Shown: in pieces, positions 24,777 through 31,381 of the stretch | Numbering within the stretch: position 1 is the stretch's first letter | Layout of the letters: each line of letters starts with the position of its first letter | DNA from: Escherichia coli | GTDB lineage: Bacteria; Pseudomonadota; Gammaproteobacteria; Enterobacterales; Enterobacteriaceae | DNA length: 64,000 bases | NCBI RefSeq assembly: GCF_044647545.1 | Contig: NZ_CP172818.1 | Strand: one strand, 5' to 3' | Position numbers and translations under genes: made by a program | The notes under the pieces: model-generated | The model's database searches: none | Told to the model about the DNA's origin: nothing | What the model saw: the letters and a program-made list of their open reading frames with translations, nothing else

Positions 24777-25870
<1,094 letters not shown>

Positions 25871-26366: not shown

Positions 26367-27632
26367 GTGTCAAAGGCAACCGAACAAAACGACAAGCTCA
26401 AACGGGCGATAATTATTTCAGCAGTGCTGCATGTCATCTTATTTGCGGCGCTGATCTGGAGTTCGTTCGATGAGAATATAGAAGCTTCAGCCGGAGGCGG
26501 CGGTGGTTCGTCCATCGACGCTGTCATGGTTGATTCAGGTGCGGTAGTTGAGCAGTACAAACGCATGCAAAGCCAGGAATCAAGCGCGAAGCGTTCTGAT
26601 GAGCAGCGCAAGATGAAGGAACAGCAGGCTGCTGAAGAACTGCGTGAGAAACAAGCGGCTGAACAGGAACGCCTGAAGCAACTTGAGAAAGAGCGGTTAG
26701 CGGCTCAGGAACAGAAAAAGCAGGCTGAAGAAGCCGCAAAACAGGCCGAGTTAAAGCAGAAGCAAGCGGAAGAAGCGGCAGCGAAAGCGGCGGCAGATGC
26801 TAAAGCGAAGGCTGAAGCGGATGCAAAAGCTGCGGAAGAAGCAGCGAAGAAAGCGGCTGCAGACGCGAAGAAAAAAGCAGAAGCAGAAGCCGCCAAAGCC
26901 GCAGCCGAAGCGCAGAAAAAAGCCGAGGCAGCCGCGGCGGCACTGAAGAAGAAAGCGGAAGCGGCAGAAGCAGCTGCAGCTGAAGCAAGAAAGAAAGCGG
27001 CAACTGAAGCTGCTGAAAAAGCCAAAGCAGAAGCTGAGAAGAAAGCGGCTGCTGAAAAGGCTGCAGCTGATAAGAAAGCGGCAGCAGAGAAAGCGGCAGC
27101 CGACAAAAAAGCAGCAGAAAAAGCGGCTGCTGAAAAGGCAGCAGCTGATAAGAAAGCAGCGGCAGAAAAAGCCGCCGCAGACAAAAAAGCGGCAGCGGCA
27201 AAAGCAGCAGCTGAAAAAGCCGCTGCAGCAAAAGCTGCCGCAGAGGCAGATGATATTTTCGGTGAGCTAAGCTCTGGTAAGAATGCACCGAAAACGGGGG
27301 GAGGGGCGAAAGGGAACAATGCTTCGCCAGCCGGGAGTGGTAATACTAAAAACAATGGCGCATCAGGGGCCGATATCAATAACTATGCCGGGCAGATTAA
27401 ATCTGCTATCGAAAGTAAGTTCTATGACGCATCGTCCTATGCAGGCAAAACCTGTACGCTGCGCATAAAACTGGCACCCGATGGTATGTTACTGGATATC
27501 AAACCTGAAGGTGGCGATCCCGCACTTTGTCAGGCTGCGTTGGCAGCAGCTAAACTTGCGAAGATCCCGAAACCACCAAGCCAGGCAGTATATGAAGTGT
27601 TCAAAAACGCGCCATTGGACTTCAAACCGTAA
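26367..27632 (+). CDS. tolA: Tol-Pal system protein TolA
   Basis: ORF track; 421 aa; GTG start; long Ala/Lys/Glu-rich helical domain II. Confidence 0.95.
   Translation: MSKATEQNDKLKRAIIISAVLHVILFAALIWSSFDENIEASAGGGGGSSIDAVMVDSGAVVEQYKRMQSQESSAKRSDEQRKMKEQQAAEELREKQAAEQERLKQLEKERLAAQEQKKQAEEAAKQAELKQKQAEEAAAKAAADAKAKAEADAKAAEEAAKKAAADAKKKAEAEAAKAAAEAQKKAEAAAAALKKKAEAAEAAAAEARKKAATEAAEKAKAEAEKKAAAEKAAADKKAAAEKAAADKKAAEKAAAEKAAADKKAAAEKAAADKKAAAAKAAAEKAAAAKAAAEADDIFGELSSGKNAPKTGGGAKGNNASPAGSGNTKNNGASGADINNYAGQIKSAIESKFYDASSYAGKTCTLRIKLAPDGMLLDIKPEGGDPALCQAALAAAKLAKIPKPPSQAVYEVFKNAPLDFKP
26650..27260 (+). repeat. Low-complexity tandem coding repeats within tolA domain II
   Basis: Repeated AAEKAAADKKAA-type units (GCGGCAGC/AAAGC motifs) visible in protein and DNA. 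Confidence 0.8.
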
Positions 27633-27764
27633 TCGCGATGTTGACTGTTCCGACGGTCAACATCAGGCACCGGTTGCCACGGGGTTCTGGTAGTTTTGTG
27701 TATTTTAGTTTGTTAACATTCTGCTAAATTATCGTGGGCCATCGGTCCAGATAAGGGAGATATG

Positions 27765-29057
27765 ATGAAGCAGGCATTACGAGTAGCATTTGGTTTTCTC
27801 ATACTGTGGGCATCAGTTCTGCATGCTGAAGTCCGCATTGTGATCGACAGCGGTGTAGATTCCGGTCGTCCTATTGGAGTTGTTCCTTTCCAGTGGGCGG
27901 GCCCTGGTGCGGCACCTGAAGATATTGGCGGCATCGTTGCTGCCGACTTGCGTAACAGCGGTAAATTTAATCCGTTAGATCGCGCTCGTCTGCCACAGCA
28001 GCCGGGTAGTGCGCAGGAAGTACAACCAGCTGCATGGTCCGCGCTGGGTATTGACGCTGTAGTTGTCGGTCAGGTCACTCCGAATCCGGATGGTTCTTAC
28101 AATGTTGCTTATCAACTTGTTGACACTGGCGGCGCACCGGGTACTGTACTTGCTCAGAACTCGTACAAAGTGAACAAGCAGTGGCTGCGTTATGCTGGTC
28201 ATACCGCCAGTGATGAAGTGTTTGAAAAACTGACCGGCATTAAAGGTGCGTTTCGTACCCGTATTGCCTACGTTGTTCAGACCAACGGCGGTCAGTTCCC
28301 GTATGAACTGCGCGTATCTGACTATGACGGTTACAACCAGTTTGTCGTTCACCGTTCACCGCAGCCGCTGATGTCTCCGGCGTGGTCACCAGACGGTTCT
28401 AAACTGGCTTATGTGACCTTCGAAAGCGGTCGTTCCGCGCTGGTTATTCAGACGCTGGCAAATGGCGCTGTACGTCAGGTGGCTTCATTCCCGCGTCACA
28501 ACGGTGCACCTGCATTCTCGCCAGACGGCAGCAAACTGGCATTCGCCTTGTCGAAAACCGGTAGTCTGAACCTGTACGTAATGGATTTGGCTTCTGGTCA
28601 GATCCGCCAGGTGACTGATGGTCGCAGTAACAATACCGAACCGACCTGGTTCCCGGATAGCCAGAACCTTGCATTTACTTCTGACCAGGCCGGTCGTCCA
28701 CAGGTTTATAAAGTGAATATCAACGGCGGTGCGCCACAACGTATTACCTGGGAAGGTTCGCAGAACCAGGATGCGGATGTCAGCAGCGACGGTAAATTTA
28801 TGGTAATGGTTAGCTCCAACGGTGGACAGCAGCACATTGCCAAACAAGATCTGGCAACGGGAGGCGTACAAGTTCTGTCGTCCACGTTCCTGGATGAAAC
28901 GCCAAGTCTGGCACCTAACGGCACTATGGTAATCTACAGCTCTTCTCAGGGGATGGGATCCGTGCTGAATTTGGTTTCTACAGATGGGCGTTTCAAAGCG
29001 CGTCTTCCGGCAACTGATGGACAGGTCAAATTCCCTGCCTGGTCGCCGTATCTGTGA
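27765..29057 (+). CDS. tolB: Tol-Pal system periplasmic beta-propeller protein TolB
   Basis: ORF track 27762..29057 (two adjacent ATGs); 430 aa from the second; signal peptide. Confidence 0.95.
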
Positions 29058-29067
29058 TAATAATTAA

Positions 29068-29613
<546 letters not shown>

Positions 29614-29622
29614 GAGAATTGC

Positions 29623-30414
29623 ATGAGCAGTAACTTCAGACATCAACTATTGAGTCTGTCGTTACTGGTTGGTATAGCGGCCCCCTGGGCCGCTTTTGCT
29701 CAGGCACCAATCAGTAGTGTCGGCTCAGGCTCGGTCGAAGACCGCGTCACTCAACTTGAGCGTATTTCTAATGCTCACAGCCAGCTTTTAACCCAACTCC
29801 AGCAACAACTCTCTGATAATCAATCCGATATTGATTCCCTGCGTGGTCAGATTCAGGAAAATCAGTATCAACTGAATCAGGTCGTGGAGCGGCAAAAGCA
29901 GATCCTGTTGCAGATCGACAGCCTCAGCAGCGGTGGTGCAGCGGCGCAATCAACCAGCGGTGATCAAAGCGGTGCGGCGGCATCAACGACGCCGACAGCT
30001 GATGCTGGTACTGCGAATGCTGGCGCGCCGGTGAAAAGCGGTGATGCAAACACGGATTACAATGCAGCTATTGCGCTGGTGCAGGATAAATCCCGCCAGG
30101 ATGACGCAATGGTGGCATTTCAGAATTTCATCAAAAATTACCCTGATTCAACTTACCTGCCAAACGCCAATTATTGGCTGGGTCAGTTAAACTACAACAA
30201 GGGTAAAAAAGATGATGCGGCGTATTATTTTGCTTCGGTAGTGAAAAACTATCCGAAGTCACCGAAGGCTGCAGATGCGATGTTTAAAGTCGGCGTCATC
30301 ATGCAGGACAAAGGTGACACCGCAAAAGCGAAAGCCGTATACCAGCAGGTTATCAGTAAATACCCTGGTACTGATGGCGCTAAACAGGCGCAAAAACGTC
30401 TGAACGCGATGTAA
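29623..30414 (+). CDS. cpoB: Cell division coordinator CpoB (YbgF), TPR protein
   Basis: ORF track; 263 aa; signal peptide, coiled coil, TPR-like C-terminus. Confidence 0.93.
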   Translation: MSSNFRHQLLSLSLLVGIAAPWAAFAQAPISSVGSGSVEDRVTQLERISNAHSQLLTQLQQQLSDNQSDIDSLRGQIQENQYQLNQVVERQKQILLQIDSLSSGGAAAQSTSGDQSGAAASTTPTADAGTANAGAPVKSGDANTDYNAAIALVQDKSRQDDAMVAFQNFIKNYPDSTYLPNANYWLGQLNYNKGKKDDAAYYFASVVKNYPKSPKAADAMFKVGVIMQDKGDTAKAKAVYQQVISKYPGTDGAKQAQKRLNAM

Positions 30415-30578: not shown

Positions 30579-30654
30579 GGGTCGTTAGCTCAGTTGGTAG
30601 AGCAGTTGACTTTTAATCAATTGGTCGCAGGTTCGAATCCTGCACGACCCACCA
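30579..30654 (+). tRNA. lysT: tRNA-Lys (UUU)
   Basis: 76-nt GGGTCGTTAGCTCAGTTGGTAGAGCAGTTGACTTTTAATCAATTGGTCGCAGGTTCGAATCCTGCACGACCCACCA; anticodon loop CTTTTAA. Confidence 0.97.
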
Positions 30655-30730
30655 ATCGCTAAGGTGGAAGCGGTAGTAAAACGTGAAGGATAACGTTGCG
30701 TCAGCAACGGCCCGAAGGGCGAGACGAAGT

Positions 30731-30754
30731 CGAGTCATCCTGCACGACCCACCA
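30731..30754 (+). other. 3' fragment of tRNA-Lys (acceptor/T-arm remnant) in the lysT-valT spacer
   Basis: ATCCTGCACGACCCACCA is identical to the last 18 nt of the tRNA-Lys genes, with no 5' half. Confidence 0.6.
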
Positions 30755-30789
30755 CTAACATAGTTAGTTGTAGTATCCAGCGTAGTATC

Positions 30790-30865
30790 GGGTGATTAGC
30801 TCAGCTGGGAGAGCACCTCCCTTACAAGGAGGGGGTCGGCGGTTCGATCCCGTCATCACCCACCA
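30790..30865 (+). tRNA. valT: tRNA-Val (UAC)
   Basis: 76-nt GGGTGATTAGCTCAGCTGGGAGAGCACCTCCCTTACAAGGAGGGGGTCGGCGGTTCGATCCCGTCATCACCCACCA. Confidence 0.97.
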
Positions 30866-30867
30866 CC

Positions 30868-30943
30868 GGGTCGTTAGCTCAGTTGGTAGAGCAGTTGACT
30901 TTTAATCAATTGGTCGCAGGTTCGAATCCTGCACGACCCACCA
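30868..30943 (+). tRNA. lysW: tRNA-Lys (UUU)
   Basis: Identical to lysT, 76 nt. Confidence 0.97.
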
Positions 30944-30994
30944 CTAATTACGGTGGGTTCGGTGGAAGTAGTTTGTAGTATCCAGCGCAGTATC

Positions 30995-31070
30995 GGGTGA
31001 TTAGCTCAGCTGGGAGAGCACCTCCCTTACAAGGAGGGGGTCGGCGGTTCGATCCCGTCATCACCCACCA
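30995..31070 (+). tRNA. valZ: tRNA-Val (UAC)
   Basis: Identical to valT, 76 nt. Confidence 0.97.
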
Positions 31071-31073
31071 CTC

Positions 31074-31148
31074 GGGTCGTTAGCTCAGTTGGTAGAGCAG
31101 TTGACTTTTAATCAATTGGTCGCAGGTTCGAACCTGCACGACCCACCA
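31074..31148 (+). tRNA. lysY: tRNA-Lys (UUU) variant copy, 75 nt, with a 1-nt shorter T-loop
   Basis: Same as lysT except T-arm reads GGTTCGAACCTGC instead of GGTTCGAATCCTGC. Confidence 0.85.
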
Positions 31149-31196
31149 ATTTTAAAGATTGGTTCCGAGTAGAAATCTTTCAGGTAACACCCGTAT

Positions 31197-31272
31197 GGGT
31201 CGTTAGCTCAGTTGGTAGAGCAGTTGACTTTTAATCAATTGGTCGCAGGTTCGAATCCTGCACGACCCACCA
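31197..31272 (+). tRNA. lysZ: tRNA-Lys (UUU)
   Basis: Identical to lysT, 76 nt. Confidence 0.97.
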
Positions 31273-31305
31273 TCCTGAATGATTAAAGCAGCATAATCCC
31301 GCAAG

Positions 31306-31381
31306 GGGTCGTTAGCTCAGTTGGTAGAGCAGTTGACTTTTAATCAATTGGTCGCAGGTTCGAATCCTGCACGACCCACCA
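31306..31381 (+). tRNA. lysQ: tRNA-Lys (UUU)
   Basis: Identical to lysT, 76 nt. Confidence 0.97.

Follow-up and report, generated by a model that had tools for sequence, protein, structure and literature searches.

The window, by which we mean the whole 64,000-nucleotide stretch of Escherichia coli DNA that was analysed, carries the gene order ybgC-tolQ-tolR-tolA-tolB-pal-cpoB, with tolA sitting between tolR and tolB. All six neighbours scored above the cut-offs of their own equivalog models, and RefSeq concurs with these assignments. The product of tolA was matched over its full length by two TolA equivalog models, NF007065 with 554 bits (cut-off 213) and TIGR02794 with 308 bits (cut-off 59). 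The RefSeq annotation of K-12 MG1655 gives tolA exactly the same span as the window ORF. At the nucleotide level, the allele of the window is 100% identical to those of FDAARGOS_497 and 21AR0303 and differs from that of K-12 by 14 substitutions and no indel. It has the 13-unit architecture of K-12, with an identical order of protein repeats. Over the last 380 nt of the gene, which include domain III, the 10 alleles compared differ from the O157 reference by 0–1 SNPs, the 15 alleles aligned are free of indels, and no length variation was seen in domain III. The features of the locus are collected in Table 1.

Table 1. Features of tolA and of its repeat region, with positions in the window.
Feature	Position	Strand	Description
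tolA coding sequence	26367..27632	+	GTG start, 421 aa; cell envelope integrity protein TolA
Most of TolA domain II (aa 95–298)	26650..27260	+	Helical spacer rich in Ala (48%), Lys (22%) and Glu (15%); T content of the sense strand 6.7%
TolA C-terminal domain III (aa 325–419)	27339..27623	+	Pfam PF06519, E = 2e-38
Degenerate upstream repeat zone	26754..27044	+	Weak 9/12/24-nt periodicity, scores 37–70, not above codon-composition chance
Core tandem-repeat array	27045..27248	+	13 imperfect in-frame units; Tandem Repeats Finder, codon shuffles, in-frame parse
Higher-order duplication	27045..27200	+	Two 78-nt copies: units 1–5 (27045..27122) and units 6–10 (27123..27200)
12-nt direct repeat AAGAAAGCGGCA	26991..27002 and 27072..27083	+	Bounds the 81-nt deletion of the 1185-nt allele
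Antisense ORF, 224 aa	26705..27379	-	ORF list; Ala/Phe/Ser low-complexity (AAAFSAAAFLS...)
Antisense ORF, 162 aa	26800..27288	-	ORF list; Leu/Gln/Pro-rich

Two side observations concern the neighbouring genes. The listed ORF starts of pal and tolB differ from the annotated starts: the mechanical ORF of pal (29068..29613; TTG start, 181 aa) exceeds RefSeq pal (522 nt, 173 aa), and that of tolB (27762..29057; 431 aa) exceeds RefSeq tolB (1293 nt, 430 aa). Just downstream of cpoB, seven tRNA genes at 30579..31381 follow each other in the order Lys-Val-Lys-Val-Lys-Lys-Lys, with anticodons UUU and UAC, and a 205-nt tandem duplication (30768..31148; 1.9 copies, 98% matches) covers the Val-Lys pairs. 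This cluster presumably resembles the lysT-valT-lysW-valZ-lysY-lysZ-lysQ operon of K-12, and its copy number could also vary between strains.

The initial annotation had taken the whole of 26650–27260 for a tandem array of near-identical units of 12–15 codons. Tandem Repeats Finder reported arrays only from 26754 onward, with the strong ones within 27024..27244 (period 15 with 12.3 copies, period 33 with 3.5–4 copies, and period 78 with 2.0 copies, 88% matches and a score of 255). As a control for chance, codons were shuffled 300 times, and the array and the part upstream of it were each compared with their own composition. Within 27039..27245, the best autocorrelation was 0.75, against a shuffle maximum of 0.66, and 34 positions lay in repeated 12-mers, against 4.3 on average and at most 24 in the shuffles. 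The upstream part (26652..27038) showed no excess over the codon shuffles, with an autocorrelation of 0.52 against a maximum of 0.54, and with repeated 12-mers covering 2 positions where the shuffles averaged 3.7. Since the array exceeds its shuffled controls whereas the upstream part does not, the repeats are real but confined to approximately the last third of 26650..27260. Head-to-tail repetition beyond what composition provides was thus found for 27045..27248 and not for 26652..27038, and the upstream two-thirds of the span are only Ala/Lys/Glu low-complexity sequence. The interpretation of the entire span as a tandem array was accordingly rejected, as only 27039..27245 surpasses the codon-shuffled controls. 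Natural indels are nonetheless present in the degenerate zone.

The units of the array follow each other in the order AAAEK, AAADKK, AAAEK, AAADKK, AAEK, AAAEK, AAADKK, AAAEK, AAADKK, AAAAK, AAAEK, AAAAK and AAAEA. They measure 15 or 18 nt, except for one of 12 nt, and hence 4–6 codons instead of 12–15, and 12 of the 13 have distinct nucleotide sequences. An 11-codon compound unit, AAAEKAAADKK, occurs four times, with 33-nt copies that are identical at 24–32 of 33 positions in DNA, a range that the description as near-identical overstated. The motif KAAAEKAAADKK is likewise found four times, at aa 226, 237, 252 and 263. At the next level of organisation, the two 78-nt copies match at 66 of 78 positions in the register given in Table 1 and at 32 of 33 over their first 33 nt.

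The two long antisense ORFs over domain II exist exactly as the initial annotation had listed them, but their attribution to the repeats did not hold. For a stop to arise in antisense, the sense strand must contain TTA, CTA or TCA, and this strand is poor in T over aa 95–298. Such trinucleotides are absent from phase 2 over 26705–27383 and from phase 0 over 26751–27267, and phase 1 has a single one (26800) between 26524 and 27346. When the codons of aa 95–298 were shuffled, which destroys the repeats, the antisense open stretches averaged 219 aa (range 103–338), and those of the non-repetitive tolB and tolQ reach 190 and 203 aa. Because shuffles devoid of repeats keep long antisense stretches, composition and not tandem repetition is the cause, and the ORFs arise as by-products of a codon usage (GCN/AAR/GAR) that is poor in T. 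Repeat organisation was therefore rejected as their origin, given that shuffled codons and non-repetitive neighbours match their lengths. Antisense ORFs of 190, 206 and 125 aa also lie over tolQ (25259..25831, minus strand), pal (29026..29646, minus strand) and tolB (27975..28352, minus strand), respectively, so that long antisense ORFs characterise the region in general and are not peculiar to the repeats of tolA.

It is highly improbable that either antisense ORF of Table 1 is a real overlapping gene. The larger one is long, and natural SNPs in its frame are synonymous in 34 of 43 cases (34 synonymous/9 non-synonymous), as in tolA; however, it has its third codon positions in common with tolA, which makes the two frames inseparable, so that the SNP test cannot discriminate between them. 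Its low-complexity product and the equal length of the shuffled and neighbouring antisense stretches also speak against a gene. By the same comparison, 4 SNPs are synonymous and 39 non-synonymous in the frame of the 162-aa ORF, compared with 34 and 9, respectively, in that of tolA. No antisense gene is annotated at this place in the 17 RefSeq records inspected, and long antisense ORFs over the tolA repeats should not be annotated as genes.

To survey length variation, 5,426 complete E. coli genomes were searched by megablast with tolA; 5,425 of them contained the gene, and one gave no tolA match at all. Lengths were read from the record coordinates of 118 full-length records, which were obtained as two systematic samples, evenly spaced along the ranked matches, with two query alleles. 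Fourteen lengths, from 1185 to 1347 nt, were found. The commonest, 1266 nt, was present in 80 genomes (68%), and the 38 others had 1311 nt (12 genomes), 1299 nt (5), 1185 nt (4), 1251 nt (3), 1215 nt (3), 1275 nt (2), 1281 nt (2), 1290 nt (2), or 1221, 1233, 1278, 1335 and 1347 nt (1 each). These frequencies describe the database and not the species because the collection is skewed towards laboratory K-12 derivatives and outbreak clones. All differences from 1266 nt in the 118 genomes were multiples of 3, and in each of the 17 alleles that were fetched the ORF is intact, with differences of whole K/A/E/D units; no sign of ON/OFF frameshift switching was thus found in either set. The expected variation in length between strains was in this way borne out, as repeat number is not invariant across the sample, and so was the expansion and contraction of the array, which takes the form of in-frame gains and losses of whole units in the fetched alleles. 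The locus is consequently a VNTR, with a copy number that changes between strains in whole units. Separately, two tolA-like places were noticed on plasmids and a few genomes had two places, and in NZ_CM176349.1 tolA is split across the start of the record.

Variant alleles were aligned to the allele of the window to map the indels. Two of them fell into the degenerate upstream zone, namely a perfect duplication of 24 nt after 26792 in strain MB50 and a deletion of 45 nt at 26869..26913 in clone D i14, and all other mapped indels lay between 26991 and 27191. Five insertions duplicated the adjacent 12, 15, 24, 33 and 33 nt perfectly and in tandem, and the single-gap deletions were flanked by 5–13 nt of identity. 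The last units, AAAAK AAAEK AAAAK AAAEA, were constant in the 17 alleles, save for one duplication of unit 10. The 81-nt deletion that distinguishes the 1185-nt allele was mapped to 26991..27071 and can slide by 12 nt. It is shared by O157:H7 RIMD 0509939 and by S1-ESP-02-A, the flanks of which are B2-type, with 1–6 SNPs per segment relative to three B2-type strains and 17–21 SNPs in each 1.5-kb flank relative to O157; the two backgrounds differ by approximately 47 SNPs. The occurrence of the same deletion on B2-type and O157 flanks points to either independent recurrence or allele transfer. As a side observation, a five-unit contraction, the commonest event in the published laboratory assay, would give approximately 1188 nt if one 78-nt copy is lost; this length was absent from the 118 sampled natural genomes, and 1185 nt was seen four times.

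A closely related set of genomes made it possible to follow the array against a nearly constant background. Beyond the array, O55:H7 DEC5B and four genomes of the O157 lineage (RIMD 0509939, strain 116, strain 147 and F8797) differ by 0–1 SNPs in approximately 4 kb, made up of 1.5 kb on either side of tolA and the parts of the gene without repeats, and the tolA lengths in these five genomes are 1266, 1185, 1215, 1275 and 1335 nt. The steps of the series are -81, +30, +60 and +60 nt; they all fall within 26991..27122, and the blocks that were gained duplicate neighbouring units exactly. Five lengths accompanied by 0–1 flanking SNPs indicate that the array changes in situ, and faster than point mutations accumulate in its flanks. 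With the F8797 allele as the query, the list of best hits included the 1275-nt allele in at least 40 O157 genomes (EC4115, TW14359, SS17 and others) and the 1215-nt allele in at least 19, and among the matches listed 1335 nt was found only in F8797. As the 1275- and 1215-nt alleles are common to many O157 genomes, alleles are stable enough to mark O157 sublineages, and the locus is not hypervariable between isolates.

The O157:H7 array might even follow a regime of its own, in which an ancestral 81-nt deletion was succeeded by stepwise, exact gains of 30 or 60 nt (1185 to 1215 to 1275 to 1335 nt) that mark sublineages. The long perfect repeats could then accelerate their own expansion, and the bovine gut might favour a longer TolA, for instance through tolerance to bile salts. 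We consider this scenario rather doubtful, but if true it would give the known variation a directional pattern that is specific to one lineage. The literature yielded nothing specific on tolA as an MLVA locus of O157, the matches being concerned with Salmonella, Klebsiella and others.

Variation of the tolA repeats is itself already known and was published in 2012. The K-12 gene was described as containing '13 imperfect repeats of 15 or 18 bp' (Zhou, Michiels & Aertsen 2012, PLoS One 7:e47766, PMC3477136), and PCR sizing and sequencing of 234 isolates gave 8–16 copies, with 13 TRs in 66% (Zhou, Vanoirbeek, Aertsen & Michiels 2012, Res Microbiol 163:316, as cited in PMC3477136). The published TR region coincides with the present locus, in gene as in species. 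The 13-unit frequency of 68% obtained here agrees with the 66% quoted from the earlier study, and our range of 1185–1347 nt, which corresponds to approximately 8 to 18 units by size, is slightly wider than the 8–16 copies quoted from it. The constant last units found here agree with the report that TR12 and TR13 never join contractions (PMC3477136). There is no difference in kind from the published description, and the stepwise O157:H7 series is resolved here.

Contraction was measured by the same authors in clonal cultures, with an assay that selected for loss of a unit carrying stop codons, at 6.9e-5, mostly as a deletion of five units, and some contractions reached into the less conserved upstream units (PMC3477136). 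In a recA mutant, contraction fell to 15% of the parental value, leaving a residue of 1.0e-5; it rose 3.3-fold in uvrD, and mutS had no effect, which was read by the authors as recombination, not simple slippage, being the primary route of contraction (PMC3477136). Engineered variants with 2–39 units all kept some function: deoxycholate was tolerated better as the number of units rose between 2 and 39, 0.6 M NaCl at pH 5 was tolerated best at 6–13 units, and phage fd plated best at 13 units (PMC3477136). These statements on rate, mechanism and phenotype come from the papers of one laboratory.

Taken with the alleles described above, the region is very probably an intragenic VNTR of E. coli tolA, made up of 13 in-frame units of 12–18 nt, in which misalignment shifts whole units, contraction is mostly RecA-dependent, and the antisense ORFs are by-products. 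In this reading, the C-terminal part of domain II forms the long alpha-helical spacer by which domain III is borne across the periplasm, and it is encoded by the 13 imperfect units, all of which preserve the frame. Misalignment between units, with the two 78-nt copies, the 33-nt compound units or short direct repeats as partners, would lead to the gain or loss of whole units, such that TolA would remain functional with an altered helix length. According to the literature, contraction proceeds mostly through RecA-dependent unequal recombination, with a RecA-independent residue of the slippage type, and repeat number tunes tolerance to deoxycholate, tolerance to salt plus acid, and susceptibility to filamentous phages, with 13 units as the common compromise. 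If domain II is one continuous helix with 1.5 Å per residue, the observed range of 54 residues (394–448 aa) would correspond to approximately 80 Å of reach.

Alternative origins of the length classes were weighed against this VNTR reading. The initial annotation had named replication slippage, and some features of the natural alleles favour it, since the insertions are perfect tandem duplications of only 12–33 nt and the deletions are bounded by 5–13 nt of identity. Perfect duplications and short bounding identity are the classical footprint of slipped misalignment, and tandem-repeat deletion work in E. coli has shown short homologies to be more typical of RecA-independent misalignment. The natural breakpoints, with 5–39 nt of identity, thus also fit RecA-independent slipped misalignment, and both routes probably contribute. 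For pure slippage, that is, RecA-independent slipped-strand mispairing, to be the main source of copy-number change is conceivable, given that the recA mutant still contracts, yet on the unlikely side, as the drop in recA, the increase in uvrD and the authors' own preference for recombination argue against it (PMC3477136). The mainly RecA-dependent contraction found in that work puts a qualification on slippage as named in the initial annotation.

Horizontal exchange of old tolA alleles between lineages, instead of ongoing change at the locus, would account for common alleles being widely held, such as that of 1311 nt, in 12 of the 118 genomes, and those of 1275 and 1215 nt, in many O157 genomes. 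However, the O55:H7/O157:H7 series combines five lengths with 0–1 SNPs in approximately 4 kb and added units that are exact copies of their neighbours, the identical 81-nt deletion on two divergent flank backgrounds would indicate recurrence, and contraction was directly observed in clonal cultures (PMC3477136), all of which makes exchange an improbable explanation. More improbable by far is that the length classes are artefacts of assembly. Short-read assemblies can collapse repeats, but a read pair is longer than the variable tract of approximately 120–290 nt, every record is a complete-genome assembly, identical alleles come back in many assemblies made independently, and 118 of 118 sampled lengths preserve the frame. 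The 234 isolates, which were sized by PCR and sequenced, showed the same pattern, as reported in the paper that cites this work. The length differences of tolA among E. coli assemblies are thus real and should not be 'corrected'.

The intragenic VNTR of E. coli tolA has counterparts in other species. The tolA repeat serves as the MLVA marker SENTR1/SE-10 in Salmonella Enteritidis (PMC2430564) and as the MLVA marker locus 53 in Klebsiella pneumoniae (PMC3948817). Both are repeats of variable copy number within the orthologous stretch of tolA and serve to mark strains, although in other species and with reported periods of 45 bp and 11 bp, which were defined differently. Contingency loci, a term applied to tolA by Zhou et al., are likewise repeat-mediated, reversible and of high frequency, with a phenotypic effect. 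Phase-variable simple-sequence repeats of this kind switch ON and OFF, whereas the units of tolA are multiples of 3 and give rise to a graded protein length without the gene ever being off; moreover, the tolA alleles are stable enough to span whole O157 sublineages. An analogous periplasm-spanning spacer is found in domain II of TonB, which belongs to a paralogous force-transduction system and is built from repeated dipeptides, Glu-Pro and Lys-Pro. It has no sequence similarity to that of TolA and forms a polyproline II helix, not an alpha-helix. The two domains are partly interchangeable (PMC10666116).

The window adds no new biology to this picture, and related species are already typed by their tolA repeat. 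TolA is a rigid force transducer that spans the periplasm (PMC10666116), and the TolQR motor acts on the outer membrane through the rigid domain II spacer, so that spacer length can tune both the robustness of the envelope and the susceptibility to phages and colicins. In E. coli, the length of TolA domain II would thus be a natural, heritable and reversible means of tuning envelope robustness against bile salts, and also susceptibility to filamentous phages and colicins.
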